A stretch of 64,000 bases of DNA. Source: Myxococcota bacterium (GTDB lineage: Bacteria; Myxococcota_A; Bradymonadia; UBA7976; UBA1532). This document shows, piece by piece, positions 1,473 to 40,575 of the stretch. Made by a program: the position numbers and the translations under genes. Position 1 is the stretch's first letter; the number at the start of each line of letters is the position of its first letter. Under the pieces are notes generated by a model that ran no database searches, was not told the DNA's origin, and saw nothing but the letters and a program-made list of their open reading frames with translations. Location: the NCBI GenBank assembly GCA_963169045.1, contig CAUJDF010000075.1, forward strand, positions 98,434 through 162,433, given 5' to 3'.

Positions 1473-2177
1473 ATGAACACTCAGTTCCAGGATCGGAAGG
1501 ACGCCGGACAGCGTCTGGCCGGCCTGCTCGGGCACTATGCCCATCGCGACGATGTCGTCGTGCTGGCCCTGCCCCGTGGTGGGGTGGCGATCGCCTACGA
1601 GATCACCCGCGCGATCTTCGCGCCCCTGGACGTCTATCTCGTCCGCAAGGTGGGCGTTCCAGGTCAGAAGGAGATGGCGATGGGGGCGGTCGCCTCCGGC
1701 GGCGTCACCGTCCGCAACGAGGACATCATCGCCTCGCTGCGGATCTCGGAGGCCGACTTCCAGGCCGTGGCCGACGCCGAGCGGCGCGAGCTGCGGCGCC
1801 GGGAGGAGGCCTATCGTCCCGACCGGCCACCGCACGCGCTGCGCGACAAGACGGTGCTGCTGGTCGACGACGGCCTGGCCACCGGCGCGACGATGCGCGC
1901 AGCCATCCACGCCGTGCGCCGCCTGGATCCGCGCGGCATCGTCGTGTGCTCGCCGACCGGATCGGCCTACGCGTGCACGGAGCTGCGTCGCGAGCCATCG
2001 GTCGATGAAGTCGTCTGCTACACGACGCCGCAGCCCTTCCACGCGGTCGGGCAGTCGTACCTCTCGTTCCCGCAGTGCACCGACCAGGAGGTCCGCGACC
2101 TGCTCGCCCGCGCCGAGCGCGACTTCCGGCCGTTGCCCGGCATCGGCGTCGGCCCCGAGAGCCGCGTCAACAACTAG
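1473..2177 (+). CDS. Phosphoribosyltransferase-domain protein
   Basis: ATG at 1473 with a GGGAG RBS. The protein reads MNTQFQDRKDAGQRLA...VVLALPRGGVAIAY...VLLVDDGLATGATMRAA (PRTase type-I fold with a PRPP-binding VLLVDDGLATGAT motif). The 5' extension in the ORF track is not supported. Confidence 0.8.
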   Translation: MNTQFQDRKDAGQRLAGLLGHYAHRDDVVVLALPRGGVAIAYEITRAIFAPLDVYLVRKVGVPGQKEMAMGAVASGGVTVRNEDIIASLRISEADFQAVADAERRELRRREEAYRPDRPPHALRDKTVLLVDDGLATGATMRAAIHAVRRLDPRGIVVCSPTGSAYACTELRREPSVDEVVCYTTPQPFHAVGQSYLSFPQCTDQEVRDLLARAERDFRPLPGIGVGPESRVNN

Positions 2178-2595
2178 GCTCGAGCGGCGGCCGGTGCCCG
2201 CGCCGCCGCAACGCGTTGACGGCGCGCAGGACGGAGCGCCGGCCGAGGATGGCACGCACGACGCGGTGTTTGCCGGGCAGGTCCGAGAGGATGGCCGCGG
2301 CGAGGATCGTCAGAAGCCCCTGTCCCGGCAGCACCAGCATCAGCACCCCCGCCACGCCGACCACCACCGCCATGCCATTGCGGATGACGTGCAGCGCGCG
2401 GCGGGCCCAGGTGTCGGCCGGGCGCCGCTCGCTGGCGACGCGGTGCAGGTAGTCGGGCGGCAGCCGCAGCAGGATCCACGGCAGCACGGCCACACTGGCC
2501 AGCAGCATCACCAGCGAGGAGACGGCGAGGCCCGCGACGACGGGCGCCCAGTCGACGCCCTGCAGGGCGGGGAAGTAGGTGGACAGGTCAGGCAC
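2167..2595 (-). CDS. Small PGPGW-family two-TM membrane protein
   Basis: GTG start at 2595 (there is no ATG before the first TM helix). Two hydrophobic helices are followed by LPGQG..LSDLPGKHR, the PGPGW family signature. It converges on the PRTase gene with an 11-nt overlap. Confidence 0.55.
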   Translation of the reverse strand: MPDLSTYFPALQGVDWAPVVAGLAVSSLVMLLASVAVLPWILLRLPPDYLHRVASERRPADTWARRALHVIRNGMAVVVGVAGVLMLVLPGQGLLTILAAAILSDLPGKHRVVRAILGRRSVLRAVNALRRRGHRPPLEPSC

Positions 2596-2618
2596 CGTCT
2601 TCAGGATGCCGGTGGGGC

Positions 2619-3977
2619 CTATTTCGCCGCAGCGGGTTCCGCCGGCACCTCGACCCGGGGGTTGTACTTCGCCGCCCGGGCGAACGCCTGACGGGCCTTG
2701 TCGGGCTCGCCGAGCGCGGCGTGCGCGTGGCCGAGCGCCTCGAAGTACTCGTCGTAGCGCAGCGGGGAGCGGGCCGCCTCGCCGACGAGCAGGCGCGCCT
2801 GCGCGGGATCGGTCGGCGCCAGGGCGCGCGCCGCCTGGAGCAGCGACATCGCGTCGCGCCGGACCTCGAGGTTGAGCTTCGCCCACTTCGCCGCCTCGGC
2901 GGGGTCCGGCTTGTCGTCGAGCCAGAAGCCGATGGCGTGGGCCGCCCACGCGTGCGGGTGCTTCGCCAGCCGCGCCTTCCACTCGCGGTCGGCCTCGAGG
3001 AGCGCCGCCTCCGCGCCCGGCGCGTCGCCCTTCGCCCGCAGCGCCTCGCCCCGCGCGGCGATGAACTCCGGCAGGCGCGTGCGCTTCACGATGTCGTCGT
3101 ACAGCTTCAGCGCCGCGTCGACGTTGCCGAGCAGCAGCTCCGTCTCGGCGAGGTGCTCCGCCGCCACGATGTAGTCGGGCAGGCGGTCGGTGGCGGCGGC
3201 GAAGAACGCGCGCGCCTCGGCCCATCGGCCCGTCCGCAGTCGCACGTGGCCCCGGAGGAAGTCGATCCAGGCGAGCACCATGGGGTGCACGTCGTCGTAG
3301 GCGGCGTAGGCGCGTCGCAGCAGCTGGTCGGCGTTGTCGGGGTCGCCGGTGACGAAGGCGATGTGCGCGCGCTGCGCCCAGTCCTCGTGGGACAGCGGCT
3401 CGGGCAGCGGCAGCGCGAGCAGGCGCGCCCCGTCGAGATAGCGGCCCGTGTTCCAATACAGATCGCCGAGGGTGTTCTGGATGCGCGCGTCGTCGGGTTT
3501 CGCCGCGAGACGCTGCTTCCAGTACGCGATCGCCTCGCCGAAGCGGTGCAGGTGGGCCTGGATCGCGGCGCGCCGGGCGCCGACCGCCTCGTCGCCGGGG
3601 AACTTCTTCTCTGCCTCGTCGAGCAGCGCCAGCGCCGCGTCCGCGTGCGCGAGGTCGCCGTCGAGCTGCGCCTTCTCCATCTCGAGCGCCGCCAGGCGGG
3701 CGAAGTGACCCGGCGTGGCCTGGGGCGTCCGGATGCGCTCGCGCAGGCTCGCCTCGAGGGCCTCCTGGTTGCGCTTGTAGATCGCGGGGCTCGTCGACCG
3801 CACCTTGCCCGGCCCCTCGGGGCCGAGCTTCGGCCCGGCGGCGGGCGGCACCGGGGCCTCCGACGCCGGGACCGCCGCCGAAGCGACGGCGGGTGCAGGC
3901 GCCGCCGGAGACGGCTCGCGGTTACAGGCGACGGTGGCGGTCAGGCCGAGGAGGGCGATGAGACGACGAGTGTCCAT
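2619..3977 (-). CDS. TPR-repeat lipoprotein
   Basis: 452-aa ORF with signal peptide and lipobox LTATVAC, multiple TPR-like helical repeats, and a TAG stop at 2619. Confidence 0.85.
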   Translation of the reverse strand: MDTRRLIALLGLTATVACNREPSPAAPAPAVASAAVPASEAPVPPAAGPKLGPEGPGKVRSTSPAIYKRNQEALEASLRERIRTPQATPGHFARLAALEMEKAQLDGDLAHADAALALLDEAEKKFPGDEAVGARRAAIQAHLHRFGEAIAYWKQRLAAKPDDARIQNTLGDLYWNTGRYLDGARLLALPLPEPLSHEDWAQRAHIAFVTGDPDNADQLLRRAYAAYDDVHPMVLAWIDFLRGHVRLRTGRWAEARAFFAAATDRLPDYIVAAEHLAETELLLGNVDAALKLYDDIVKRTRLPEFIAARGEALRAKGDAPGAEAALLEADREWKARLAKHPHAWAAHAIGFWLDDKPDPAEAAKWAKLNLEVRRDAMSLLQAARALAPTDPAQARLLVGEAARSPLRYDEYFEALGHAHAALGEPDKARQAFARAAKYNPRVEVPAEPAAAK

Positions 3978-4025
3978 GGCGGCGCATCATCGGACGACCG
4001 CCGCACGGACGCAATCGGGCTCACG

Positions 4026-5045
4026 TCAGTGCGGGGTGGCGAGGAAGGGGAAGGTCATCGAGAACTCCTTGTCGTTCTCGCGGATGCAGTCCCAGTCGGT
4101 CGTGCCGAGGTCGGCCAGGCCGATCCCGCCGACGAGCGCCGACAGGGTGGTGTCGATGACGTCCTGGCCCATCCAGCGGCCGCCCGAGGTCGACATGTTG
4201 TCGGGGATGATCCCGAGCAGCACGAGCTCCCGGTGCAGGTAGCCGTTGTTCGCGAAGGGCTTGCTCGAGTCGAGGACGAGCCAGTCCTGCGCCAGCGCGG
4301 GCGCGACGGCGGCGGCGTTGAAGCCGGCGCCCTCGAGCACCGTGTTGCCCACCGTGCCGTCGAGCGCGTCGGCGCCGGTGAGGCCGGCCTGGATCGTCGC
4401 CGACCAGTTCTCGGCCCACGCCGCGGGATCAGCGTCGCGGTTGTACGCGTCCTTCTGGGCGGCCGGGATGAGCGCGGTGTTGACCGCCGCGCGGCCCATG
4501 CGGTCGATCTGGCCCTCGGCCATCCCGCCGCCGGCGCCGCCCTCGCCTCCCGCGCCGCCCATGCCGCCGGCGCCGCCCTCGCCGCCGGCGCCGCCGGCGC
4601 CGGTGCAGCTGTCGGAGAACGCCGGCGACAGGCCCTTGAGCGTGTTGACGAGCTGCGTGCAGTCGTTCTGCTGCTCGACGATGGGGCGCAGCGCGGGGTT
4701 GTCCGCGCACGTCGGGATGCAGCCCTCGATGAACGCCATGCGGTTGGCCTCTTCGAGGCCCGGGCACAGGTCGGCCGGCGTGTCGATGATCGCGCAGTTG
4801 AACAGCTTGGTGCAGGCGTTCTCGCAGGGCGTGCCCATCATGCCGCCCATGCCGCCCTGACCACCGGCGCCGCCCTGACCACCGGCGCCGCCCTGGCCGC
4901 CGGCGCCGCCCTGGCCGCCGGCCGCGCCGGCGCCACCGGCGCCATCGTCGTCGTCGTCACCGTCGTCGCAGCCGGCCGCGAAGGCGAAGGCCGCGAGGAC
5001 CGCCGTCAGGAGGAGCGTGCCCCTGGATTCAATCGTCTTGCGCAT
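4026..5045 (-). CDS. Lipoprotein with (GGAGGQGG)n linkers and a Cys-containing globular C-terminal domain; possibly the C-terminal half of a DUF4331-like protein
   Basis: MRKTIESRGTLLLTAVLAAFAFAAGC lipobox, two GGAGGxGG low-complexity blocks, and a C-terminus reading ...DCIRENDKEFSMTFPFLATPH. It sits 1 codon downstream of gene 5049..5675, in the same frame. Confidence 0.75.
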   Translation of the reverse strand: MRKTIESRGTLLLTAVLAAFAFAAGCDDGDDDDDGAGGAGAAGGQGGAGGQGGAGGQGGAGGQGGMGGMMGTPCENACTKLFNCAIIDTPADLCPGLEEANRMAFIEGCIPTCADNPALRPIVEQQNDCTQLVNTLKGLSPAFSDSCTGAGGAGGEGGAGGMGGAGGEGGAGGGMAEGQIDRMGRAAVNTALIPAAQKDAYNRDADPAAWAENWSATIQAGLTGADALDGTVGNTVLEGAGFNAAAVAPALAQDWLVLDSSKPFANNGYLHRELVLLGIIPDNMSTSGGRWMGQDVIDTTLSALVGGIGLADLGTTDWDCIRENDKEFSMTFPFLATPH

Positions 5046-15079: not shown

Positions 15080-17671
15080 ATGTCGCACCCCACCGTCGTC
15101 CTCAAGTTCGGCGGCACCAGCGTCGCCTCCGTCGAGCGCTGGCGCACCATCGCCCACTGCATCGTCGACCGCCTCGGCGAGGGCCTGCGCCCCGTCGTCG
15201 TCTGCTCGGCGGTCGCCGGCATCTCCGACCAGCTCGTGAAGGTCGCCGACCTCGCCCCCGAGGGACGGCACGAGGCCGTCGTCCAGGCCATCGCCGAGCG
15301 GCACCGGGCGCTCGCCGCCGAGATGGGCGTCGATCCGGCGCCGCTCGAGCAGGCCCTCGCCGAGCTCTCGCGCCTCGCGCTCGGCGCCTCGCTGACCGGC
15401 GAGGTGAGCCCGCGCCTGCGCGCCCGCCTCATGGCGTGGGGCGAGCTGACCTCGACCCGCCTCGGCGCCGCCTGGATGGCCGCGCAGGGCATCGACGTGA
15501 CGTGGCTCGACGCCCGCGACCTGCTCACGTCCGCCGATCCGCCAGGCACACCCGCGGCGCGCCGCTACCTCTCGGCGACGTGCGCGCACGACGCCGACGC
15601 GGGCCTGCGCGCGCGCGTCGGCGCGCTGTCCGGCGCCGTCCTCACGCAAGGCTTCATCGCCCGCGACCGGGCCGGCGACATGGTGGTGCTCGGCCGCGGC
15701 GGCTCCGACACCTCCGCCTCGATCCTCGCCGCCCGCCTCGGGGCCGTCCGCTGCGAAATCTGGACGGACGTGCCGGGCATGTTCACCGCCAACCCGCGCC
15801 AGGTCCCCGCCGCGCGCCTCATCCGCGCCGTCGACTATGACGAGGCGCAGGAGATCGCGTCGACCGGCGCCAAGGTCCTGCACCCGCGCTGCCTGCCGCC
15901 GGTGCGCGACGCCCACGTGCCGCTCTTCGTGAAGTGCACCGAGCAGCCGGACCTGCCCGGCACGGTCGTCGCCGACGCCGACGTGGACCGCCCCGCCGGG
16001 GTGAAGGCGATCAGCATGCGCTCCGGCCTCGTGCTCGTCTCCATGGAGACGCTGGGCATGTGGGGCCAGGCCGGCTTCCTCGCCGACGCCTTCGCCTGCT
16101 TCAAGGCGCATGGCGTCAGCATCGACCTCGTCAGCACCTCGGAGAGCAACGTCACCGTCTCGCTCGACCCGGCGACGCAGGTGCTCGACGCCGCCACCCT
16201 CGACCGGCTCGTCGCGGACCTCGCAGCCATCTGCCAGCCGCGCCTCATCCGCGACTGCGCGAGCGTCAGCCTCGTCGGCCGGCACATCCGCCGCATCCTG
16301 CACCGCCTCGCCCCGGCGCTCGAAGCCTTCGAGGAGCAGCGCATCCATCTGTTGACGCAGGCGGCGAGCGATCTGAACCTGACCTTCGTCGTCGACGGCG
16401 ACCAGGCGGACCGCGTCGTCCGCGACCTGCACGCCCATCTGTTCGGCGCCGATGCCATGGCCGTCGATGCCTTGGGACCCACGTGGACGGAGCTCTCCGG
16501 CAAGGGCGCGCCGGCGCGGCCGGTGGGGGAGGGCCGCTGGTGGCGCCACCGCCGCGACGACCTGACGGCGATCGCCGCGCAGGGCACCCCCCGTTATGTG
16601 TACGACGGCGCCACGCTCTGCCGGGGCGTCGCGGGCCTGCGCGCGCTGACATCGGTCTCGCGCGTCCTGTATGCCGTGAAGGCCAACGCCAACGCCGATG
16701 TGTTGCGCCGTCTGTTCGACGCCGGCGTCGGCGGCTTCGAGTGCGTGTCGCCGGGCGAGCTCGCGCACGTCGCCGGTCTGTTCCCGGACCTGCAGGGCCG
16801 CACGGTGCTGTTCACGCCCAACTTCGCGCCGCGCGCCGAGTACGAGCGGGCGTTCGCCGCCGGCGCGACGGTGACGCTCGACAACCTGCACCCGCTCGAG
16901 GCCTGGCCCGACGTCTTCCGCTTCCGCGAGGTGTTCGTGCGCCTCGATCCGGGGCGGGGGATGGGCCACCACCACCACGTGCGCACCGCGGGCACGGCCT
17001 CCAAGTTCGGCATCGCCCCGGACCAGCTCGGCGCGCTCGCCCGCCTCGTCGCGCGCGCCGGCGCCCGCGTCGTCGGCCTGCACGCCCACGTCGGCAGCGG
17101 CGTGCGCGAGCCCGAGGCGTGGGCCCGCACCGGCGCCTTCCTCGCCGACGTGGCGACGAACGGCGGCTTCGCGGCGCACGTCCGCGTCCTCGACCTCGGC
17201 GGCGGCCTCGGCGTGCCCGAGAAGCCCGGCGAGCCGACGCTGGACCTCGCCGCGCTCGACCGCGCGCTCGCCCGCCTGCGCGGCGCGCACCCGCACCTCG
17301 AGCTGTGGCTCGAGCCCGGGCGCTACCTCGTCGCCGAGGCCGGCGTCCTGCTCGCCCGCGTCACGCAGCTCAAGCAGAAGGGCGACGTGACGTACGTGGG
17401 CGTCGACGCCGGCATGAACAGCCTCATCCGCCCGGCGCTCTACGGCGCGTGGCACGAGATCGTGAACCTCACGCGCCTCGACGAGGAGCGCACCGCCACC
17501 GTCCACGTGGTCGGCCCCATCTGCGAGAGCGGCGACACGCTCGGGCATGATCGCCGCCTGCCGCCGAGCCGCGAGGGCGACGTGATCCTCGTCGGCGTGA
17601 CCGGCGCGTACGGCGCCGCGATGGCGTCGCGCTACAACCTGCGCGAGCCGGCGGCCGAGGTCGTCATCTGA
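15080..17671 (+). CDS. lysAC: Bifunctional aspartate kinase / diaminopimelate decarboxylase (LysC-LysA fusion)
   Basis: ATG at 15080 with a GAGAGAGG RBS. The N-terminus has an amino-acid kinase fold (VVLKFGGTSV...) plus ACT-like regions. The C-terminus has a PLP-dependent Orn/DAP decarboxylase fold (YAVKANANADVLRRL...GFECVSPGEL...). Confidence 0.85.
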   Translation: MSHPTVVLKFGGTSVASVERWRTIAHCIVDRLGEGLRPVVVCSAVAGISDQLVKVADLAPEGRHEAVVQAIAERHRALAAEMGVDPAPLEQALAELSRLALGASLTGEVSPRLRARLMAWGELTSTRLGAAWMAAQGIDVTWLDARDLLTSADPPGTPAARRYLSATCAHDADAGLRARVGALSGAVLTQGFIARDRAGDMVVLGRGGSDTSASILAARLGAVRCEIWTDVPGMFTANPRQVPAARLIRAVDYDEAQEIASTGAKVLHPRCLPPVRDAHVPLFVKCTEQPDLPGTVVADADVDRPAGVKAISMRSGLVLVSMETLGMWGQAGFLADAFACFKAHGVSIDLVSTSESNVTVSLDPATQVLDAATLDRLVADLAAICQPRLIRDCASVSLVGRHIRRILHRLAPALEAFEEQRIHLLTQAASDLNLTFVVDGDQADRVVRDLHAHLFGADAMAVDALGPTWTELSGKGAPARPVGEGRWWRHRRDDLTAIAAQGTPRYVYDGATLCRGVAGLRALTSVSRVLYAVKANANADVLRRLFDAGVGGFECVSPGELAHVAGLFPDLQGRTVLFTPNFAPRAEYERAFAAGATVTLDNLHPLEAWPDVFRFREVFVRLDPGRGMGHHHHVRTAGTASKFGIAPDQLGALARLVARAGARVVGLHAHVGSGVREPEAWARTGAFLADVATNGGFAAHVRVLDLGGGLGVPEKPGEPTLDLAALDRALARLRGAHPHLELWLEPGRYLVAEAGVLLARVTQLKQKGDVTYVGVDAGMNSLIRPALYGAWHEIVNLTRLDEERTATVHVVGPICESGDTLGHDRRLPPSREGDVILVGVTGAYGAAMASRYNLREPAAEVVI

Positions 17672-17762
17672 CGCGGTCGTGCGCGGGCGTCAGCGAGGCT
17701 TCGGCTTCCCTCGTCCGCTCGCGAAAGTGAAGTCTGGCTTCAGTTTCGTGCAAGAGGTGGAA

Positions 17763-18650
17763 ATGAGCGAAGCGCTCGACGATCTGATCGCACGGCTCGA
17801 CGTCCGCAGCGACGCGTTCAAGGCCGCGTGGGTCGACGCGGCCCTCGAGCGCTTCGACGAGGTGGCGCCGCGCCTCGTCGCGTACCTCGAACAGGCGGTG
17901 GCCGACCCCGTGGGGTTCGACCGCTCGCGCGGCGCGGCGCTCGGGCACCTGTACGCGCTCGCGGTGTTGGCGCACCGGCACGAGGCGCGCGCGCACGACG
18001 TGGTGGCCGACCTGGCGTCGCTGCCGCCGGACGTGCTCGATTCGCTGCTCGGCTGGTTCGTGATGGAGGGGCTCGCGGGCGCGCTGGCGGCGACGAGCGG
18101 CGGGCGCACCGACCGGCTCGTCGCGCTGCTGGCCGACGACGCCGCCGACGAGTACGCGCGCGGCGCGGCCGCCGACGCGCTCGCCTTCCTCGCCCACCGC
18201 GGGGAGGCGGACCGCGCCGCCGTCGTCGAGCGGCTCGCCGGCCACCTGCATTCGGCCTCGTCCCACGTCGCGGCCAGGGCCGTCGTGGCGCTCGTCGACC
18301 TGCACGCCGTGGATCGGCGCGACGCCATCGAGGCCGCGTATGCCGCGGGGACCGTGGAAGAGGCGACGTTCGGCCCGGAGGAGGTCGAGGCGCTGTTCGC
18401 CGAGGGCCCCGAGGCGGCCGCCGCGCGCCTCGAGCACCGGCTGACACGCGAAATGCCGCAGGATCCGCGCGGCGTGCTCGGCGGCATGTACGACCTGCCC
18501 GACCTGCCGCCGCCGCACCGTGATCGCGACGAGGCGCGGCCGGCGGCGCCGCGAACGGCTGCCCCGCCACCGCCGCGGAGGGATCCGGCAAAGGCCAGGG
18601 CGAAGCGGAAATCGGCGAGGGCGGCGCGAAAGAAGCAGCGCAAGCGGTAG
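17763..18650 (+). CDS. Hypothetical protein with a Lys/Arg-rich C-terminal tail
   Basis: ATG at 17763 with a GAGGTGGA RBS. 295 aa, helical and Ala-rich, ending ...AKARAKRKSARAARKKQRKR. Confidence 0.65.
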   Translation: MSEALDDLIARLDVRSDAFKAAWVDAALERFDEVAPRLVAYLEQAVADPVGFDRSRGAALGHLYALAVLAHRHEARAHDVVADLASLPPDVLDSLLGWFVMEGLAGALAATSGGRTDRLVALLADDAADEYARGAAADALAFLAHRGEADRAAVVERLAGHLHSASSHVAARAVVALVDLHAVDRRDAIEAAYAAGTVEEATFGPEEVEALFAEGPEAAAARLEHRLTREMPQDPRGVLGGMYDLPDLPPPHRDRDEARPAAPRTAAPPPPRRDPAKARAKRKSARAARKKQRKR

Positions 18651-18659
18651 CCGGAACGA

Positions 18660-18942
18660 GCGGCATCGGCGCGAGCCGCCGGCGCGTCAGCGCGCGGGAT
18701 CGGTGCGAGCCGCCGGCGCGTCAGCGCGCGGGATCGGCGCGAGCCGCCGGCACGGGGGCGACGAGACGGCCGCGCGTCAGCGCGCCGGCGGCGGCGGGCG
18801 AGCGGGGCGAGCAGCAGCGACGGCCGCGCGTCAGCGCGCGCGGCGTCGGCGGCGGCCGAGCGGGGCGAGCAGCAGCGACGGCCGCGCGTCAGCGCGCCGG
18901 CGGCGGCGGCCGAGCGGGGCGAGCAGCAGCGACGGCCGCGCG
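18660..18942. repeat. Array of about five tandem 35-58-nt GC hairpin repeats. Each is a degenerate copy of the last ~54 nt of the amidase gene (its MYXO-CTERM tail) and carries a TGA in the hairpin loop
   Basis: tcagcgcgc recurs at 18686, 18721, 18777, 18831 and 18889, and then at 18943, which is the true stop. Each unit has the stem gccgcgcg / cgcgcggc around tcag. On the minus strand the copies read ARPSLLLAPLGRRRRRA in the +1 frame. Confidence 0.8.
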
Positions 18943-20679
18943 TCAGCGCGCGCGGCGGCGGCGGGCGAGCGGGGCGAGCAGCAGCAGCGCGAGCCACGCG
19001 GGCGCGGCGCCGCCCGTGCGGCAGCCGCCGTCGTGCGCGGCCGCGGACTGGCGCGTCGGCGGGGCGAAGCGGGCGTCCCCCGTCGCGGCGTCGGCGGGCG
19101 CCTCCTCGGCCGCGTCCACGCCCGCGTCCGGGTCGCCGCCGCAGTCGTCGGCGCAGGGCGCGGCCGCGTCCGGGGGCGGCGGCGGCGCGCCGGCGTCGGG
19201 TCGGGGCAGGACGTCCAGCTCGGCATACGCCTGCAACGGCCGTCCGAGCGTGTTCGTCGACGGCGGCGCGTCCCACGCGTCCTGGTCGCCGTACACGCCG
19301 TCGATGTGGCGCACCCATCCGCGCACGTCGGGGTGGTCCGCCTGCCCGACGCTCGGCGGCCCGGCCTCGAGCGTCACCCGCACGCGCTTCGCCTCGCCCG
19401 CCCCGAACGCGTACATCGTCAGGAAGCCCGCCTGCTCCATCGCCGCCTTGGGCGGGTTCTCCGGCGCGCCGTCGGCGTCATTCGTCATCCACGTCGCCCG
19501 GTCGCGGGCGGGGTGGTCCGTCTCGATCACGTAGTCGACGGCCCGGAGCCACGGCTCCTCGATCCAGAAGCCGGCCTGCACGCCGCGGATGGGACCCTCG
19601 GACCGGTTCTCGATGCGGATCTCGGCCTCGAAGCGGTCGCCGGGGAACACGTCGGCGCGACCGTCCCCGTCGCGATCGGTGACGCCGAGCCAGCGCACCG
19701 ATACGTCCACCTCGGTGCGCGGCGGGGGCGGCGGCGCGCCCCCGTTTCCGGCGCGACGCAAGAGCTCGTCGAGCTTGCCGAGCAGGTCGCCGCCGGGGCA
19801 CTCGGTGCCCTGGCCGGGCCACTCCCGGTGGCCCTTGACCACGCTGCGCTCGAGCGGGATGCCATACGTGCGCGACACCCACCCGACGATGGCCGCCGCC
19901 GCGTTCAGCTGCGCCTCACCGACCTGCTGCTGCTGGAAGTTGCCGATGAGGCAGACGCCGACGTTGCCGCTGTTCTGGTTGCCGACGTGGGCGCCCGGCC
20001 GCCGCTCGTCGGAGCGCCCCTGGAACACGAGCCCGCTCTGGCTGACCACGAAGTGGTAGCCGATGTCGCACCAGCCGTTGCTGTCGATGTGGTAGGCCTG
20101 GATCTGTCGCAGGCGCGCCGCCGGATCGCCGCCGTCGTCGGCGGGCTGGGCCGTGTGGTGGATGCTCATGCGGTAGGGCGCCACCACGTCGCCGCAGACG
20201 CGCCCGGGATCGCGCGCGCCCCACTCCGCCCGGGGGATGACGAGGTCGCGCGGCGCCAGCGCCTGGCGCCGCGTGCCGTAGGGCAGCTCGCGCGTCAGCG
20301 GGCCGTCGCCGGCGCGCCGCTCGTCGTAGAGCTCGACGCGCGCCACGTCGAGGCCGGCGCCGCCGCGCAGCGCGACCGACACCGCGCGCCGCGGCAACAC
20401 GACGCGGCCGACGTGCAGCCGGCCCTCGCTCCACGTGATCTCGACCGGCGCCCACTCGCTCTCGCCGCCGTCGGCCCACACGGCGCGCCAGGCGAGCCCC
20501 GCGGGATCCCCGTCGAGCATCAGCCCGACCTGGGCGGCGTCGCCGTCGAGCCGCACGCCGGCGGCCAGCTCGGCGCCGCTGAAGTGCGCGAGGGGGCCGC
20601 CGTGGTCGTGGTCGTCATGGGGGGGGGCGCAGGCGGCGAGGAGGAGGGCCAGGGCGAGGGCGATGCGCATGGGGGTCAT
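18943..20679 (-). CDS. N-acetylmuramoyl-L-alanine amidase (PGRP/amidase_2 domain) lipoprotein with a MYXO-CTERM-type C-terminal sorting tail
   Basis: MRIALALALLLAAC signal and lipobox. The amidase_2 motifs are HHTAQP...YHIDSNGWCDIGYHFVV. The C-terminus reads ...GGCRTGGAAPAWLALLLLAPLARRRRAR* (Cys, hydrophobic stretch, Arg cluster). Confidence 0.85.
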   Translation of the reverse strand: MTPMRIALALALLLAACAPPHDDHDHGGPLAHFSGAELAAGVRLDGDAAQVGLMLDGDPAGLAWRAVWADGGESEWAPVEITWSEGRLHVGRVVLPRRAVSVALRGGAGLDVARVELYDERRAGDGPLTRELPYGTRRQALAPRDLVIPRAEWGARDPGRVCGDVVAPYRMSIHHTAQPADDGGDPAARLRQIQAYHIDSNGWCDIGYHFVVSQSGLVFQGRSDERRPGAHVGNQNSGNVGVCLIGNFQQQQVGEAQLNAAAAIVGWVSRTYGIPLERSVVKGHREWPGQGTECPGGDLLGKLDELLRRAGNGGAPPPPPRTEVDVSVRWLGVTDRDGDGRADVFPGDRFEAEIRIENRSEGPIRGVQAGFWIEEPWLRAVDYVIETDHPARDRATWMTNDADGAPENPPKAAMEQAGFLTMYAFGAGEAKRVRVTLEAGPPSVGQADHPDVRGWVRHIDGVYGDQDAWDAPPSTNTLGRPLQAYAELDVLPRPDAGAPPPPPDAAAPCADDCGGDPDAGVDAAEEAPADAATGDARFAPPTRQSAAAHDGGCRTGGAAPAWLALLLLAPLARRRRAR

Positions 20680-20710
20680 GACAGCACGCCGCGGCGCGCG
20701 ATGCCAAGGC

Positions 20711-21184
20711 TCAACGCAGCCACGACGACACCGTGAAGAGCGTGGCGCGCTCCGCCGCCGCGGCGCGCGCGAAGAAGGCGCGCAGCGAGACGAACCAGCC
20801 CCAGACGTACTCGAAGTCCTCGTCGGTGAGCGGCTCGCCGTACGCGTCGGGATCGAGGGCGAAGTAGCGGCCGCGCAGGTCGTCCTCGCCGAGCTCGGCG
20901 AGGAAGGCGGCGACGTCGCGCACCTCCGCCGGCGCGAGGTACGTCACGACGTGGTCGCCCCCGTGATACAGGCGGCGCCCGCCGTCGAACGCCCGCGCGC
21001 CCGGGCCGCCGCTCAGGCTGCGCTGGATGGCGTCCCATGCGAGATCGGTCTCCTGGCGCCAGTCGTCCTCGCGGACGGCGAGCTCGTCCAGCGCGATCTC
21101 GAGCACCTCGTCGTCGCTCTCCGCCGTGAGCAGCCGCGTCGCGTCGCTCGCCTCGAGCGCGATGTGGAGACCTCGACCCCCCAT
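20711..21184 (-). CDS. YfbM-like (DUF1877-type) cytoplasmic protein
   Basis: ATG at 21184 with GGGAGG 6 nt upstream. 157-aa acidic protein; the family assignment is tentative. Confidence 0.6.
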   Translation of the reverse strand: MGGRGLHIALEASDATRLLTAESDDEVLEIALDELAVREDDWRQETDLAWDAIQRSLSGGPGARAFDGGRRLYHGGDHVVTYLAPAEVRDVAAFLAELGEDDLRGRYFALDPDAYGEPLTDEDFEYVWGWFVSLRAFFARAAAAERATLFTVSSWLR

Positions 21185-32970: not shown

Positions 32971-33643
32971 TCGCCGCGCACAGGAACGAGAGGTAGTCGC
33001 GCGTTCGCTCGAACCGGCCGGCGAGCTCGTCGACGACGGCGGGTGAGCCGAACACGACGGGATCGAGGTCGCACACGGCGATGAACGAGGTGCGCTTCAG
33101 CTCCTCGGCCAGCGGGTGCGTCGCGTCGAACCCGCGCGGCACGCGCTTCAGCTTGTCGCCGCCCTGGCGGAACGTCTCGGCGAAGGCGGGCTCGCCGAGG
33201 ATGGCCGCAAAGCGCTCGCCCTTGTCGGCCACCTGCTCCCGGAGGCGCTGCAGCACCGCCGGCTCCGGCCCCCACAGGCCGGCCCCGAGGAAGCACCCCT
33301 CCGGCGCGAGGTGCACGTACAGCCCGGGCGCGTGCACGTCCTTGCCGGCGTCGTGCCGGAACTGGATGCCGACGTTCGTCTTGTACGGCGTCTTGTCCTT
33401 CGAGAAGCGCGTGTCGCGGTGGACGCGCATCAGCGAGCCGCCCACCTTGCGGTCGTCCGCCACGAAGTGGGGCGACAGCGCCTGCAGGCGCGGCTTCATC
33501 GCGCGGATGAACGCCCGCGCCGGCTCGCGCACGTCGCGCTCGTAGCGATCGCGGTTGGCCTCGAACCACGTGCGCTCGTTGCGCAGCGAGAGCTCCTCGA
33601 GGAACTCGAGCGTGCCCGCGGGGAAGCCGTCGAACGTCTCCAT
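32954..33643 (-). CDS. DUF2461 (TIGR02453) family protein
   Basis: ATG at 33643 with a GGAGGGAGG RBS. It reads METFDGFPAGTLEFLEELSLRNERTWFEANRDRYERDVREP..., a typical DUF2461 N-terminus. The long 5' extension in the track is not supported. Confidence 0.8.
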   Translation of the reverse strand: METFDGFPAGTLEFLEELSLRNERTWFEANRDRYERDVREPARAFIRAMKPRLQALSPHFVADDRKVGGSLMRVHRDTRFSKDKTPYKTNVGIQFRHDAGKDVHAPGLYVHLAPEGCFLGAGLWGPEPAVLQRLREQVADKGERFAAILGEPAFAETFRQGGDKLKRVPRGFDATHPLAEELKRTSFIAVCDLDPVVFGSPAVVDELAGRFERTRDYLSFLCAAISLPF

Positions 33644-33684
33644 TGCCCCCTCCCTCCGTCGTCGGAGCGGGGAGCGTGGCACAC

Positions 33685-34404
33685 TCAGCGCGGGCGGACC
33701 ACCAGCCACGTGCGGCGGATTTGACGCGCCTCGATGCGGCCGCCCTCGCCGAAATTCGAGTCGAGCTCGCCGCGGCGCACGCGGGCCACGGTCACCTCCA
33801 CGCGGCAGCTCTCCTCGCCGTGGGCCTCGAGGTCGCCCGGCTGCACGACCAGGCCGCCGCGGTCGTCGTGGATCACGCGCTCGAAGGGCCAGATGCAGTC
33901 GCCCTCGAGCCGCACCTCGACGGGATCGCCGGCGGCGCGGTCCCACGTGATGCGCACGCGGTCCTCGCCGGGCACGACGAGCGCGCCGGCCCGCGGCGAC
34001 GTCAGCCGGAACGGCTCGGGCAGCGACACCGTCGAGTCGTCGGCGTCCTCGCCGTTCTCGGACGGCCGCTCGAACGCCACGCGGAACTCGGTGTCGGCCT
34101 CGTCGCGCGAGAAGGCGGCCAGGTAGTGGACCTCGTCCCAGACGTTGCGGCTCGCGACCATCGTCTTCGTCTGCGCCTGCGCCGTGGCCAGCAGACGGTC
34201 GCCTGCGGTCAGCTCGAGGTAGGTGTTCGACGAGTCGCCGCCGGGGCGCAGCGTCGTGCGGACGATGCTCTGTCCGTCGCCGTGCGCCTCCACCTCGATC
34301 TCGGCGTACACACCCGAGGTACGCAGGTCGGCGGAGTCGAGCGTCTCGCAGGCGGCGACGGAGAGCAGGCTGACGGCGACGGCGATCTTCGCGGAACGAT
34401 TCAT
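33685..34404 (-). CDS. Hypothetical lipoprotein
   Basis: ATG at 34404 with a GGGGGAG RBS. MNRSAKIAVAVSLLSVAAC lipobox. It occupies the 3' end of the 2271-aa shadow ORF. Confidence 0.7.
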   Translation of the reverse strand: MNRSAKIAVAVSLLSVAACETLDSADLRTSGVYAEIEVEAHGDGQSIVRTTLRPGGDSSNTYLELTAGDRLLATAQAQTKTMVASRNVWDEVHYLAAFSRDEADTEFRVAFERPSENGEDADDSTVSLPEPFRLTSPRAGALVVPGEDRVRITWDRAAGDPVEVRLEGDCIWPFERVIHDDRGGLVVQPGDLEAHGEESCRVEVTVARVRRGELDSNFGEGGRIEARQIRRTWLVVRPR

Positions 34405-34650
34405 GATTCTCCCCCGGTGTTCGTGTGTTTCGCCGCGGGATGGAGCAACGACCGTGCCGAGGGCGGCGGGCCCGCGGCGATGGCGGTCGGGCGTGCGCCG
34501 TGTGAACGCGCGTTCATGCAGTCGCCGACCGCCGTGCACAGGGGGGCGCCGTCCGGCGGGCGGCCCGCTTGCGTCATTCGGGGACCTGCCCGCACAATCG
34601 GGCCGTTTCGCGCCCCGGGGGGCGTCTCGACTCGTCAAGTCCATCAGAGG

Positions 34651-37600
34651 ATGTCCATGCGTAGGGTCACTTCGCTGACGAGCCTGCTGTGCCTTCTGTT
34701 CATGTTCGGCTGCACCGGCGAAGGCGGGGGCGGCGGTGACGGAGGCTCGGGCGGTGCCGGTGCTCAGGGCGGTGAAGGCGGCGCGGGCGGCTCGGGTGGC
34801 GAGGGCGGGGCCGGTGGAGAAGGCGGCGTCGGCGGCCAGGGCGGCGCCGGCGGCCCGGGCGGCGCCGGCGGCCAGGGCGGCGCCGGTGGACAAGGCGGCG
34901 CCGGCGGACAGGGCGGCGCCGGCGGTCAAGGCGGCGCCGGCGGTCAAGGCGGCGCCGGCGGTCAAGGCGGCGCCGGCGGAGAAGGCGGCGCCGGCGGAGA
35001 AGGCGGCGCCGGCGGAGAAGGCGGCGCCGGCGGAGAAGGCGGCGCCGGCGGAGAAGGCGGCGCCGGAGGTCAGGGCGGCGCCGGAGGTCAGGGCGGCGCC
35101 GGTGGCGCCGGCGGCCAGGGTGGCGCCGGCGGCGCGGGCGGTGAGGGCGGAGCGGGCGGCGCCGGCGGTGCGCCCGAGGTCGTCCTGCAGGGGCTGACGG
35201 TCGCGCCCGACGCCCTCCAGCTCGTCGCCGGCCAGACCGCGTACCTGCGCGTCGCCGGCACCTTCAGCGACGGCGACGAACGCGATCTGACCGACACCGC
35301 GGTCTGGCGCAGCGCCAACGGCGCGATCGTCGCCGTCGGCGCCCTCGGCGACGAGGGCAAGCAGGTCGTCGCCATCGGCGCCGGCCAGACGGCGATCACC
35401 GCCCGCGTCGGCGACGTCGTCAGCGGTCCGGTCGTGGTCACCGTGGCCGAGGTCGAGCCCGTCCGCATCGTCATCACGCCCGACGAGGCCACCGTGCCCG
35501 CCGGCGACTTCTTCGAGTTCACGGCGACCGCCGAGTTCAACGACGGTAACACCGCCGACGTGACCGAGCTGGCCGAGTGGCGCACCAGCAACGGCATCGT
35601 GGCCGAGATCTCCAACGAGCCCGGCGAGCGCGGGCGCCTCTCGGCCCACGTGGCGGGGGCGACGCAGGTCACGGCGATCTACGAGGGCCTGGTCTCGGCG
35701 CCGGTCCGCGTCGACGTCGCCGAGGCCGTCCTCATGGCGATCGACGTCTCGCCCGCCGATCCGACGGTGGCCGTCGGCCAGACGGTCTCCTTCACCGCGA
35801 CTGGCACCTACAGCGACGGCGACGAGGGCGACGTCACGGCGCTGGTGCAGTGGACGTCCTCCGACGAGGCCGTCGCGACCTTCGACGGCGCGCAGGGCGT
35901 GGCGCGCGGCGTCGCCGCCGGCCGGGCGCAGGTCGTCGCCCGCATCGGCGACCTCGCCAGCGCGCCGCGCACGATCAACGTCACGGCGGCGCGCGTCGTC
36001 GCGCTCGCCGCGCGCGGCGAGTCCGCCGAGGTGCCGGTCGGCGCGAACACACGCTTCCACGTCACCGCGACCCTGAGCGACGGCAGCGAGGTCGACTACT
36101 CGGCGCAGGCGGAGTGGCGCTCCTCCGACGCCGCGATCGCGCGCATCGTCGCCGGCGGCGTCGCCACCGGCGTGGCGCCCGGCGACGTGCAGATCACGGC
36201 GCACGCCGGCAACGTCGCGAGCGCGGCCCTGCCGCTGCGCGTCGTGCCCGTGGCGCTCACCGCGCTCGCGGTCGAGCCCGACAGCGCCGACCTCCGCGTG
36301 GGCGAGGTGACCCGCCTCGTGGCCCGCGGCACGTTCAACGACGGCTCCCGCGCCGACGTCACCGCGCGGGCCCAGTGGCGCAGCGCCAACGGCCTGATCG
36401 CCAGCGTCGGCGACGCCGAGCCCGACAAGGGCGCGGTCCGCGGCGTCGGCGCCGGGCAGACGCGCATCACCGCTTCCCTCGACGGCCAGGCGGCGGTCGC
36501 CACGGTCAACGTCCGCGCCCTCGCGGTCGCCCGGCTCGAGGTCGCGCCGGCCCAGGCCGAGGTCCCGCTGGGCGGCGAGCAGGCGTTCACCGCCACGGCG
36601 GTGCTCGAAGACGCCTCGCGCCGCGACGCTACCGCCGAGGTCAGCTGGCACAGCAGCGACGAGGGCGTGGCCACGGTCGACAACGAGGGCGAGGGCCGCG
36701 GTGTCGCCACCGGCCGCGGGCGCGGCCAGGCGTCGATCACCGCCCGGCTCGGCGCCGTCGTCAGCCCCGCGGCGACGCTCACCGTGACCGAGCCCGAGCT
36801 CACCGAGGTCTACGTCACGCCCGACGAGACCGAGGTGATCGTCGGCGAGACCGTGCAGTTCGAGGCGACCGCGGTGTACTCCGACGGCACCGAGCTCGAC
36901 GTCACCGAGCAGGCGCGCTGGACGATCGAGCCCGCCGAGCTCGCCGACATCTCCAACGCCGAGGGCACGCGCGGCGCGGCCACCGGCCAGCGTCTCGGCG
37001 TCGCCGACGTCTTCGCCTCCTTCGACGGCGAGCTCTCCGGGGCGGCGTCCCTGACGGTGCTGCCCGTGCCGAACCGCGCGCCGATCGTTCAGCTGCAGTG
37101 CCCGGAGTCGGGCCGCGAGGGCGACGCGCTCGACTTCGGCGCCGTGGGCACGAGCGACCCCGACGGCTCGATCGCCCGGCTGCTGTGGAACTTCGGGGAC
37201 GGCTCGCCGGCCATCGACATCGGCGACGGGCGCGCCGTCTCGTACACCTACGACGCCTCGGGCCCCTTCACGGTCGAGGTGACGGCCATCGACGACGAGG
37301 GCGCGCGGACGATCGCGCGCTGCAACGTGACCATCCTCAGCGCGAACGCCCCGACGGTGCGGCTCGTCCGCCCGCAGGGCGCCCGCGACACCACCCAGGG
37401 GGAGGTGATCTCGGCGCTCGTCGACGCGCGCCCCGGTCCGGGTCGCAACATCCGGCGCGTGGCGCTGCTGCTCGACGGGGAGGAGGTCGCCTTCGACGCC
37501 GACCTGCCCTACGAGATGGACTTCACGGTCCCCGCCGACGCGGCCACCGGCGCCACGCTGCGCCTCGTCGCCCAGGCGACGGACGACCGCAACGAGTCCG

Positions 37601-40575
37601 GCATCTCGGCGGCCACGCTGCTCAACGTCGTCAACGAGCTGCCCACGGCGACGTTCGTGGCCGTACCGTTCGCCATCCGCCAGGTGCGCGTGGACGCCGG
37701 CGGCGTGACCGACGACACGACGACGACCGCAAACCTGCAGGTTCGTTGGGATTTCCAGAACGACGGCGTCTGGGACACGCCCTTCGCCGCCGAGAAGACC
37801 GCCACCTTCGAGTACCCGGCCGTCGGCGACTACACCATCAAGATGGAGGTCCGCGACAACATCGGCCAGACGGCGTCGACGACGCGCGAGGTGCGCTTCC
37901 GCGACCAGCAGGTGGTGTTCGGCGACATCGAGAGCCAGGTCTGGTTCGGCACGATCATCGTGACGGGTGACGTCCGCGTGTTGCCGAACAACACGCTGAC
38001 CATCGCCGCCGGCACCCGCGTCCTCGTGACCAACGTCGACCAGGACCGCAACAACATCGGCGACTACACTTTGCAGGTCGACGGCCGCATGGTGGTCGAG
38101 GGCGAGCCGACGAACCCGGTGGTGTTCACCGTCTTCGGTGACGCGCAGCGGGCGGGCGCCTGGGACCGCATCATCCTCGCCGGCGCCGGCAGCACCATCA
38201 CCCACGCGGTGGTCGAGTACGCCGACGTCGGCATCGAGGCCCGCGCCGCGGCGACGCTCTCCAACGTCACCGTCCAGAACACCCGCTGGGACGGCATCTG
38301 GATCAACCGCGGCAACAACACGGCGCTGACCGACGTCACGGCGCACCACACGCGCAGCGGCGTCTCCGTCACGAACGCGACGGGCGTCCAGATCACGCGC
38401 CTGACGAGCCGTGAGAACGGCCAGGTCGGCCTCTACGCCGCCGACTCGACCGCGACGGTGGCCGACTCGGTGTTCCAGCAGAACGCGAACGACGGCGTCT
38501 ACGCGGAGCGCAGCAGCCTGACGTTCACCAACCCGTCGATCACGCGGAACGGCGGCAACGGCGTGCAGCAGTTCGACGGCACGCTCAACCTTCGCGACGG
38601 CGCGGTCGGTCGCAACGGCGCCGTCGGCATCGCGGTCCGCGGCGCCGTCAACGGCACGATCCAGCGGAACAACATCACCGAGAACGCGTTCGAGGGCGTC
38701 TCCGTCACCTACCACCAGGGCCGCAACCCGACCGTCGCGGTGACGCGCAACAACATCCACTCGAACGCGACGACGCGCAGCCACGTCTACACGGTGATCA
38801 CGGCGGGGCTGCCGTCCGCGAGCGACAGCTCGCGCGACGGTGTGCGCGTCACGTCGCAAGTGTGGACGCCGCCCGCGGGACACACGCTGCTGTTCGTCGA
38901 GGCCGACTACTCCGGCAATCAGGACGACTTCGGCGAGCTGCAGGACGGCACCGGCCGCGTCATCGATACCTTCCGGCCCGGCGCGAGCGCGCGCGTCTAT
39001 GACCGCAGCAGCGCCGAGCAGCGCCTGCGCGTGAGCGCCTGGGACGACGACTGCTGCACGGCGTCGACGATCCGCGTCGCCCGGGTCGTGACGCGGAGCA
39101 ACGGGCAGCGCGGCCAGCTCGTCGTCGCCGCCACGGCGGGCGCGATCAACGCCCGCGAGAACTACCTCGGCGTGTACCCCGACGTGCTGAGCGCCGTCTC
39201 CATCTCCCCGGCCATGGCCGCCGACCTCCAGGGCTTCGTCGGCGTCCCCTTCGACAACACGTGGAACACCGGGCCCTACTACGGCGGCGCCCTCGCGGCC
39301 GACACGACGTGGTCGGGCACGATCTTCGTGAGCGGCGACGTCACGGTGCCGGCCGGCCGGACGCTGACGGTCGAGGCGGGGACGCAGGTGCTCGTCGCGC
39401 CGATCGACCAGGACGGCAACGGCATCGGCGACTACAAGGTCGAGAGCAGCGGCGCCCTGGTGATCGCCGGCGCCCAGGGCAACCCGGTGAACTTCCGGGC
39501 GGACGACGCCGCGGGCGCCGTCCGGGACTGGGAGGGCATCCGCGTCCTCGGCGGTGGCTCGTCCGCGCGCTTCGTCACCGTGGCCGACACCGACACCGGT
39601 CTGCACCTCGCCGGCGCCGGCGCCGTCGTCGAAGACGCGACCATTCGCCGCGCCCACGTGGGCGTGCGCGTCGCGGGCGGCAACCCCACGCTGCGCCGCC
39701 TCCTCGTGCGCGACAGCGCGAGCCACGGCGTGCACGCGCAGCAGGCGGTGACGATCGAGGTGGCGACGGCGCGCAACAACGCCGGCAACGGCTTCGTGCT
39801 CGAGGGCGGGGCGGGTCGCCTCTCCGACATCTACTCGATCGAGAACGCCGGCCACGGCATCGACGTGCGCAGCCAGGGCAACAACGTGACGTTCTTCGAG
39901 TCGAGCGGCAACGGCCAGCAGGGCGTCCACCTGTACGCCGCGGCGTCGGGGACGTTCTCGGACTGCCTCGTCACGCTGAACGGCGGTGCCGGCTTCTACT
40001 TCGGCTCGCAGTACGACAACCACCCGCAGGCGACGGTCACGCGCTGCAACATCCTGAGCAACGCCAGCGTGGAGGGCGGCGGCGTGACGACGGCGACGGA
40101 GGCCCTCAACGTCGTCTCCGCCACCGACAGTGCGCGCGACGGCGTCCGCGTCACGTCCGGCGACTACAACGCGCCGTTCCCCATCTACGAGGCGAGGGTC
40201 GCGACCAGCGGCAACCAGGACGACTTCAGCGAGCTGATCAACTCGGTCAACGGTCAGTCCTTCGGCGCGCTGTCGCCGGGCACGATCCGCTGGTACGACA
40301 TCGCCAGCCTCATGCGCCTCCGCGTGTCGGCCTGGGACGACGACTGCTGCACGGCGAGCTCGATCACCGTGACCAACGTGCGCATGTACCGAGCGGGCCA
40401 GCAGAACCTCGACCTGGTCTCGAACGCGTTCGCCGCGAACCGCATCAACGCCCAGAACAACTTCTGGGGCGTCTTCCCGAACGTGGCGGGGAAGATCCAC
40501 GAGGGTCTGGCCGGCTCGGTCGATTACCGCGGCTTCCAGCCGAACGCGTTCCAGAACGTGGGGCCGCGGCAGTGA
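34651..40575 (+). CDS. Giant (~1975 aa) surface lipoprotein: (GGAGGxGG)n linker, ~10 Big_2 Ig-like domains, 2 PKD domains, and two duplicated parallel beta-helix modules each ending in a DDCCTAS motif
   Basis: MSMRRVTSLTSLLCLLFMFGC lipobox; a ~150-aa GGAGG repeat block; Big_2-like repeats (...VTAIYEGLVSAPVRVDV...); PKD motifs (LWNFGDGSP...YTYDASG and WDFQNDGVWD); and two beta-helix modules each followed by VRVTS...SGNQDDF.ELx...LRVSAWDDDCCTAS. Confidence 0.9.
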   Translation: MSMRRVTSLTSLLCLLFMFGCTGEGGGGGDGGSGGAGAQGGEGGAGGSGGEGGAGGEGGVGGQGGAGGPGGAGGQGGAGGQGGAGGQGGAGGQGGAGGQGGAGGQGGAGGEGGAGGEGGAGGEGGAGGEGGAGGEGGAGGQGGAGGQGGAGGAGGQGGAGGAGGEGGAGGAGGAPEVVLQGLTVAPDALQLVAGQTAYLRVAGTFSDGDERDLTDTAVWRSANGAIVAVGALGDEGKQVVAIGAGQTAITARVGDVVSGPVVVTVAEVEPVRIVITPDEATVPAGDFFEFTATAEFNDGNTADVTELAEWRTSNGIVAEISNEPGERGRLSAHVAGATQVTAIYEGLVSAPVRVDVAEAVLMAIDVSPADPTVAVGQTVSFTATGTYSDGDEGDVTALVQWTSSDEAVATFDGAQGVARGVAAGRAQVVARIGDLASAPRTINVTAARVVALAARGESAEVPVGANTRFHVTATLSDGSEVDYSAQAEWRSSDAAIARIVAGGVATGVAPGDVQITAHAGNVASAALPLRVVPVALTALAVEPDSADLRVGEVTRLVARGTFNDGSRADVTARAQWRSANGLIASVGDAEPDKGAVRGVGAGQTRITASLDGQAAVATVNVRALAVARLEVAPAQAEVPLGGEQAFTATAVLEDASRRDATAEVSWHSSDEGVATVDNEGEGRGVATGRGRGQASITARLGAVVSPAATLTVTEPELTEVYVTPDETEVIVGETVQFEATAVYSDGTELDVTEQARWTIEPAELADISNAEGTRGAATGQRLGVADVFASFDGELSGAASLTVLPVPNRAPIVQLQCPESGREGDALDFGAVGTSDPDGSIARLLWNFGDGSPAIDIGDGRAVSYTYDASGPFTVEVTAIDDEGARTIARCNVTILSANAPTVRLVRPQGARDTTQGEVISALVDARPGPGRNIRRVALLLDGEEVAFDADLPYEMDFTVPADAATGATLRLVAQATDDRNESGISAATLLNVVNELPTATFVAVPFAIRQVRVDAGGVTDDTTTTANLQVRWDFQNDGVWDTPFAAEKTATFEYPAVGDYTIKMEVRDNIGQTASTTREVRFRDQQVVFGDIESQVWFGTIIVTGDVRVLPNNTLTIAAGTRVLVTNVDQDRNNIGDYTLQVDGRMVVEGEPTNPVVFTVFGDAQRAGAWDRIILAGAGSTITHAVVEYADVGIEARAAATLSNVTVQNTRWDGIWINRGNNTALTDVTAHHTRSGVSVTNATGVQITRLTSRENGQVGLYAADSTATVADSVFQQNANDGVYAERSSLTFTNPSITRNGGNGVQQFDGTLNLRDGAVGRNGAVGIAVRGAVNGTIQRNNITENAFEGVSVTYHQGRNPTVAVTRNNIHSNATTRSHVYTVITAGLPSASDSSRDGVRVTSQVWTPPAGHTLLFVEADYSGNQDDFGELQDGTGRVIDTFRPGASARVYDRSSAEQRLRVSAWDDDCCTASTIRVARVVTRSNGQRGQLVVAATAGAINARENYLGVYPDVLSAVSISPAMAADLQGFVGVPFDNTWNTGPYYGGALAADTTWSGTIFVSGDVTVPAGRTLTVEAGTQVLVAPIDQDGNGIGDYKVESSGALVIAGAQGNPVNFRADDAAGAVRDWEGIRVLGGGSSARFVTVADTDTGLHLAGAGAVVEDATIRRAHVGVRVAGGNPTLRRLLVRDSASHGVHAQQAVTIEVATARNNAGNGFVLEGGAGRLSDIYSIENAGHGIDVRSQGNNVTFFESSGNGQQGVHLYAAASGTFSDCLVTLNGGAGFYFGSQYDNHPQATVTRCNILSNASVEGGGVTTATEALNVVSATDSARDGVRVTSGDYNAPFPIYEARVATSGNQDDFSELINSVNGQSFGALSPGTIRWYDIASLMRLRVSAWDDDCCTASSITVTNVRMYRAGQQNLDLVSNAFAANRINAQNNFWGVFPNVAGKIHEGLAGSVDYRGFQPNAFQNVGPRQ

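Follow-up and report, generated by a model that had tools for sequence, protein, structure and literature searches.

The mycobacterial interspersed repetitive unit–variable-number tandem repeat (MIRU-VNTR) loci of Mycobacterium tuberculosis consist of 40–100-bp units in lineage-specific complex arrays, and the spacer contains only a few bases in relatives (PMC2734929). A tandem array of similar construction was found in DNA from a Myxococcota bacterium (assembly GCA_963169045.1, contig CAUJDF010000075.1, positions 98,434–162,433 of the forward strand). The whole 64,000-nt stretch is called the window here, and positions refer to the window unless stated otherwise. The array lies between two converging genes, one encoding an N-acetylmuramoyl-L-alanine amidase and the other a DUF1186 protein. 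It is probably a neutral, locally generated, lineage-specific intergenic minisatellite produced by slippage or unequal exchange. The amidase gene (18943–20679, minus strand) is the source of the repeat units.

Judged by analogy, the closest known system is the bacterial intergenic VNTR, such as MIRU-VNTR. In both cases, head-to-tail units of 40–100 bp are located in an intergenic spacer of a high-G+C genome, several unit lengths are mixed in one locus, and the lineage-specific array occupies a spacer whose counterpart in relatives is short or different. The presumed origin, slippage or unequal exchange, is also the same. However, MIRUs are dispersed (41 loci in H37Rv) and are typically located inside operons, whereas the present array is confined to a single locus in the sequence available, lies between convergent genes and is visibly taken from the 3' end of the adjacent gene, stop codon included. 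A second likeness is found in the intergenic gaps of mitochondrial genomes that arose by tandem duplication (PMC5370444). These spacers also consist of duplicated adjacent sequence, and their stem-loop units are thought to promote slippage. The mitochondrial gaps belong to an organelle with a different mode of replication, whereas here the 3' end of a protein-coding gene was duplicated in a bacterial chromosome. The preliminary description of this locus regarded such repeats as undescribed. This claim was overstated, as lineage-specific intergenic minisatellites with 40–100-bp units, for example MIRU-VNTR (PMC2734929), are well known in high-G+C bacteria.

The convergent spacer (18651–18942, 292 nt) is nearly all repetitive. 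Tandem Repeats Finder detected 2.7 copies of a 34-nt unit at 18660–18751 (94% matches, score 170) and 4.0 copies of a 54-nt unit at 18765–18985 (93% matches, score 387), the individual units of the latter being 54 or 58 nt long. The same interval, 18765–18985, is also described by a 112-nt dimer period (2.0 copies, 95% matches, score 407). The repeats with periods of 34, 54 and 112 are direct and run head to tail, as in a minisatellite or VNTR with units of about 10–100 bp. The palindromic core GCGCGTCAGCGCGC is present in exactly six copies, at 18682, 18716, 18772, 18826, 18884 and 18938, and the spacings are 34, 56, 54, 58 and 54 nt. All six copies are on the same strand in direct register. 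Each copy contains TGA on the minus strand, and the TGA of the last copy is the true stop codon of the amidase gene. When one mismatch is allowed, the core has nine matches in the 64 kb (2.96 expected), and a 50-nt unit probe has three matches (0.00 expected).

The repeat family was compared with the rest of the window and with 80 loci of relatives (623 kb in total). The exact core is found neither elsewhere in the 64 kb nor in the relatives' loci. The unit probes match only at 18651–18985 in the window and give no match in the relatives' loci; dispersal of the unit family, as known for MIRUs, is thus absent from this sequence. According to Tandem Repeats Finder, no comparable array is present in the 80 loci. 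Among the 72 tail-like gene ends of the window and these loci, the amidase gene is the only one whose last 48 nt recur downstream (local score 39, the next being 13). Scans of metagenomes with a 40-nt unit probe and with a degenerate probe for the conserved QAGFWIEEPW motif were empty. No match to the array was detected among plasmids or phages, and an origin from a mobile element or phage is thus unsupported.

The units were delimited by cutting the minus strand after each TGA. Unit 2 (18889–18942, 54 nt), unit 3 (18831–18888, 58 nt) and unit 4 (18777–18830, 54 nt), all read on the minus strand, have the same layout. Each begins with the 12 nt found after the real stop codon (CGCGCGGCCGTC), continues with the codons SLLLAPL[G/A]RRRRR(A)R and ends with TGA. 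The three units are 91–98% identical to one another and 81–86% identical to the amidase gene end. Unit 2 is 84% identical to the gene tail and 98% identical to unit 4, and its pseudo-tail SLLLAPLGRRRRRA is in the +1 frame. The pseudo-tail of unit 3, ARPSLLLAPLGRRRRRAR, is in frame with its own TGA. In the pseudo-tail of unit 4, all 33 nt of the body (18786–18818) agree with the gene tail at 18953–18985, and the stop-proximal end is of the 54-nt type. Unit 5 (18721–18776, minus strand, 56 nt) is a hybrid composed of the 12-nt post-stop sequence, a degenerate stretch and a 34-nt-type unit with TGA, and it shows 65–73% identity to the tail units. The remaining part (18651–18720, minus strand) comprises one full 34-nt unit, 18687–18720, ending with TGA, and a partial unit, 18651–18686, abutting the DUF1186 stop codon. 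About 40 of the 54 nt in each unit are non-palindromic tail-coding sequence. The units are without the Cys motif and the first half of the hydrophobic helix of the amidase tail, and all are located after the amidase stop codon.

The amidase tail was aligned to these units, and a search with the amidase protein was used for comparison with relatives. The search gave one 100% identical entry (P0001) and one 82% identical protein with the same end point (P0002, encoded at the locus L080 of the closest relative); the rest were at most 59% identical. L080 is collinear with the window over a lysA-type gene, the DUF1186 gene and the amidase gene. The nucleotide identity is 84–87% in the amidase and lysA-type segments and 73% in the DUF1186 segment. 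The homology ends at 18942, the base adjoining the amidase stop codon, and at 18655, which is 5 nt past the DUF1186 stop codon. Between these ends, L080 has 2651 nt (L080 positions 1527–4177), versus 286 nt in the window (18656–18941), which are entirely array. In the L080 segment, a leader of lower G+C content is accompanied by a gene for a secreted-looking protein of 810 aa, which ends in a Gly/Asn/Lys-rich stretch (...GKPGKKGGKK) and has no sorting tail; this gene has no homologue in the 64-kb window. L080 carries a single amidase tail and no tandem array, and its tail aligns to the array units at 76–80%. There is no palindrome across the L080 amidase stop codon. The single tail that aligns to the units at a locus without an array indicates that the array is the derived, lineage-specific state.

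The sequence and the comparison with L080 show that the 54- and 58-nt units are derived from the 3' end of the amidase gene by local tandem duplication. Tandem copying from this gene end had been proposed in the preliminary description, and the ortholog with its single tail, the restriction of the units to this locus, the arrays found by Tandem Repeats Finder and the alignment of three units to the gene terminus all agree with it. The further proposal that about five tail copies fill the spacer, each re-encoding the tail with a +1 shift, is correct in part. The spacer is near-wholly repetitive, but only the three units of 54, 58 and 54 nt are clear copies of the tail; unit 5 is a hybrid and the 34-nt units are not securely traceable to the tail. 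The +1 shift applies to unit 2, but not to unit 3.

In the proposed mechanism, a stretch comprising the final 42–46 or so coding bases of the amidase, its stop codon and the next 12 bases would have been duplicated locally in tandem to give the core of the array. The tail consists of CTG and CGC triplet runs beside a G+C palindrome, and slipped-strand mispairing or unequal sister-strand exchange should therefore be favoured. The first duplication would have given the second unit, which would then have gained a 1-nt deletion, and the resulting 112-nt dimer would have been duplicated again. The two dimer copies, 18765–18852 and 18877–18964, are 98% identical over 88 nt. Together with the 54/58/54 alternation, this identity indicates that the 112-nt dimer was duplicated last. 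Exchange between units would then have made the array a mosaic. Unit 4, with its gene-identical body and its stop-proximal end of the 54-nt type, is such a mosaic, as expected from exchange between units. The copies would remain in the 3' untranslated region and decay. As all of them are downstream of the real stop codon, they are not translated, and as they have neither the Cys motif nor half of the helix, they are not sorting signals. We infer that slippage generated the array and that the array is neutral.

Several observations weigh against a simple minisatellite origin. Variation in copy number is the hallmark of minisatellites, and the array is known here from one assembly. The array is located exactly at the place of the 2.65-kb gene segment of L080, so that a more complex origin, for example by deletion repair, is possible. 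The source of the 34-nt units is not securely traceable to the amidase tail. Moreover, the perfect 8-bp palindrome over the amidase stop codon is the longest perfect stem among the 29 gene ends of the window and is in the top 2% of random 63-mers. This palindrome is kept in every unit in some form, and it could hint at selection or at a mechanistic role.

With respect to the L080 segment, one candidate was that two MYXO-CTERM tails had recombined, with loss of the gene between them, and had left the array as a remnant. This candidate was rejected, since the 810-aa gene of L080 has no such tail. The more distant relatives, Bradymonadales/Lujinxingiaceae-like metagenome-assembled genomes (MAGs) at about 50% identity, are not syntenic at this locus, and both a gain of the 2.65-kb segment in L080 and its loss from the window are compatible with this comparison. 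In species-representative genomes, the nearest amidase homologues are likewise encoded in Bradymonadales/Lujinxingiaceae-type Myxococcota MAGs. As their identity is only about 50%, the window comes from a poorly sampled lineage.

The 34-nt units show 53–59% identity to the tail units. They have little in common with them beyond the palindrome and do not encode the tail peptide. The similarity of their body to the upstream tail codons (AWLAL) is at chance level, 24% of random windows scoring equally. The 34-nt units can be aligned collinearly with the 64 nt after the L080 DUF1186 stop codon. This alignment is marginal, being equalled by 1.5% of random windows and 6% of G+C-matched windows. The 34-nt units may be decayed derivatives of the tail units or sequences from the 3' flank of the DUF1186 gene.

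Each GCGCGTCAGCGCGC core can form a hairpin. The palindrome GCCGCGCG-TCAG-CGCGCGCGGC (18935–18956) spans the true amidase stop codon, TGA at 18945–18943 on the minus strand, and forms a stem of 8–9 bp in single-unit folds. As stated in the preliminary description, a TGA on the minus strand is located in or at the loop of each motif. An 8-bp stem had also been assigned to each copy. The core motif is indeed present six times, but the uninterrupted stem of 8–9 bp is formed only at 18938 and 18826, and the other four have 4–5-bp cores with bulged extensions. These hairpins are the basis of a functional explanation, in which the stacked units serve as bidirectional terminators without a U-tract ('I-shaped'), as an insulator or as stabilisers of mRNA 3' ends, like the repetitive extragenic palindromes (REPs) of enterobacteria. 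The array would have been retained because the spacer would otherwise be only a few bases long. The retention of the G+C palindrome in every unit, the length of the stem at the amidase stop codon and the location between convergent genes fit this explanation, and in L080 the 64-nt spacer following the DUF1186 gene also contains a G+C hairpin of 8 bp. The structural results do not. No terminator-like site was found on either strand within 17500–20800; neither strand has a U-tract, and each stem is followed by G+C-rich sequence. Compared with dinucleotide shuffles, none of the single hairpins is significantly more stable (z from −1.7 to +1.5), and the whole array has no extra stability (z = +2.35 on the minus, amidase-sense strand and −0.71 on the plus strand). 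Four of the six stems are interrupted, and the arrangement is missing from the ortholog and from all the other loci examined. The array has no match in Rfam at E ≤ 1, and assignment to a known RNA family was rejected on this basis. These results render stacked functional hairpins unlikely, and the bidirectional terminators of the preliminary description are not borne out.

The same applies to its comparison with REPs. REPs and the bacterial interspersed mosaic elements (BIMEs) built from them (PMC2817692) resemble the array in that short palindromes rich in G+C cluster in intergenic regions after stop codons. However, REPs have more than 100 copies per genome and alternate in orientation in BIMEs, whereas the present units are direct copies, all in one orientation, at one locus, and consist mostly of non-palindromic tail-coding sequence. 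Intrinsic (Rho-independent) terminators also have a G+C-rich stem-loop at or after the stop codon. They differ from the array, which has no U-tract on either strand and is not more stable than expected from its composition. At most, the array incidentally supplies G+C hairpins to the 3' untranslated parts of both converging transcripts. As a separate observation, strong perfect hairpins are generally missing from the 29 gene ends of the window, where the best perfect stem averages 4.2 bp and does not surpass that at random positions. Intrinsic terminators of the canonical kind are apparently not the usual arrangement here, and none with a U-tract was detected near the locus.

The source gene encodes 578 residues with a lipoprotein-like N-terminus and a C-terminal sorting tail. 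It belongs to Amidase_2 (Pfam PF01510, E = 2.8e-20), and the G+C content at third codon positions of its reading frame is 0.94, in a window with about 75% G+C throughout. The MYXO-CTERM-type tail is encoded at 18946–19029 on the minus strand (residues 551–578, GGCRTGGAAPAWLALLLLAPLARRRRAR). It is tripartite, with a Cys motif, a hydrophobic helix and an Arg-rich end (GGCRTGG-AAPAWLALLLLAPLA-RRRRAR), as in MYXO-CTERM signals. In NCBIfam, the tail scores 21.3 bits against TIGR03901 MYXO-CTERM (cut-off 20, residues 551–576) and 23.6 bits against TIGR04564 Synerg-CTERM (cut-off 22.5, residues 550/551–576). As both cut-offs are passed, the class of the tag is not uniquely assigned by the profiles. 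The ortholog of the amidase is labelled 'Synergist-CTERM' by the Joint Genome Institute (JGI). The amidase gene is the sole gene with a sorting tail in the 64-kb window. Myxosortase removes the helix and the Arg cluster of MYXO-CTERM proteins (PMC11980579), and the tail should therefore be absent from the mature amidase.

The six TGAs of the array are distributed over two frames, three in frame 0 and three in frame +1, and none is in frame +2. Relative to the gene, the 54-nt units have a 1-nt deletion, so that their tail-like frame skips their own TGA. A 1-nt deletion in the terminal run of CGC (Arg) codons of the amidase gene would add 37 aa with two more SLLLAPLGRRRRR modules, and the 615-aa product would end with ...RRRPRADARPSLLLAPLGRRRRRADARPSLLLAPLGRRRRRAR at the in-frame TGA of unit 3. 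The preliminary description, which had noticed that a frameshift attaches further tail modules, is arithmetically correct on this point. A contingency locus could be imagined on this basis, in which slippage in the CGC run or gain and loss of units switches the amidase tail between a normal and an extended form and alters sorting. The array is, however, located after the stop codon (18943), outside the reading frame and the promoter, unlike a phase-variable repeat, and it would be read in frame only after a separate frameshift within the CGC run. The attached modules have no Cys motif and no full helix, and cleavage by myxosortase takes away the helix and Arg cluster in any case (PMC11980579). 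Switching would also need diversity, which the nearly identical units do not offer. A shift into the +2 frame meets no stop codon until 17692, which means that long nonsense extensions would result from half of all possible shifts. A role in tail switching, which the preliminary description had raised, is therefore extremely improbable.

A related idea is that the unit of tail plus stop codon was amplified because it works, either as a U-less terminator or insulator stack or as a reservoir from which slippage can lengthen or restore the amidase sorting tail. The terminator or insulator version would be set in a genome whose gene ends are otherwise without strong hairpins. If functional amplification were true, the array would be the first described regulatory repeat derived from a sorting signal. 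We regard this idea as very unlikely. Unless termination at the hairpins is demonstrated, the array raises no new mechanistic question.

The copy number or arrangement of the units could also be wrong through collapse or expansion during assembly. The array is known from a single NCBI contig, probably metagenome-assembled, with no second copy on record, and such an extremely G+C-rich and repetitive sequence is difficult for short reads. On the other hand, substitutions and indels distinguish the units in a nested, mosaic fashion, with decayed variants among them, and assemblers tend to merge repeats, not to create diverged copies. The exact internal repeats reach 51 nt at most, under the usual final k-mer sizes. 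Together with the nested differences between units, this length means that a de Bruijn assembly with k > 51 can resolve the array. An assembly artefact is thus quite improbable as an explanation of the array, and collapse of additional identical units is possible.

The array illustrates cleanly how, in a very G+C-rich genome, an intergenic minisatellite can grow from the 3' end of a coding sequence together with its stop codon. The array is a likely site of length variation or misassembly and, if polymorphic, a possible marker for strain typing. Its value is mainly for annotation and assembly quality, and gene callers could misplace the amidase gene end because of it. As the TGAs are found in only two of the three frames, long spurious open reading frames (ORFs) pass through the array and form a trap for gene callers. 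The two examples, in the two non-gene frames, encode 542 aa (17690–19318, minus strand) and 131 aa (18831–19226, minus strand), and the 131-aa ORF ends at unit 3.

The convergent neighbour is the DUF1186 gene (17763–18650, plus strand; Pfam PF06685, E = 4.7e-22), with the stop codon TAG at 18648–18650. The ORF opens at GTG 17679. According to blastn and tblastn, the homology to L080 at both the protein and DNA levels begins at residue 29, which corresponds to ATG 17763, and this ATG is therefore likelier than GTG 17679 to be the start codon. The 863-aa ORF at 15080–17671 (plus strand) resembles a fusion of aspartokinase and diaminopimelate decarboxylase. Its C-terminal half matches the Orn/DAP/Arg decarboxylase gene of L080 (PF00278 and PF02784), and its N-terminal half would be the aspartokinase part on inspection of the sequence only. 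Another tandem repeat of the window, at 34786–35159, consists of 20.8 copies of an 18-nt unit (88% matches). It encodes (GGAGG[E/Q])n, which makes up a long Gly-rich linker within an ORF of 2354 aa at 33511–40575 (plus strand).

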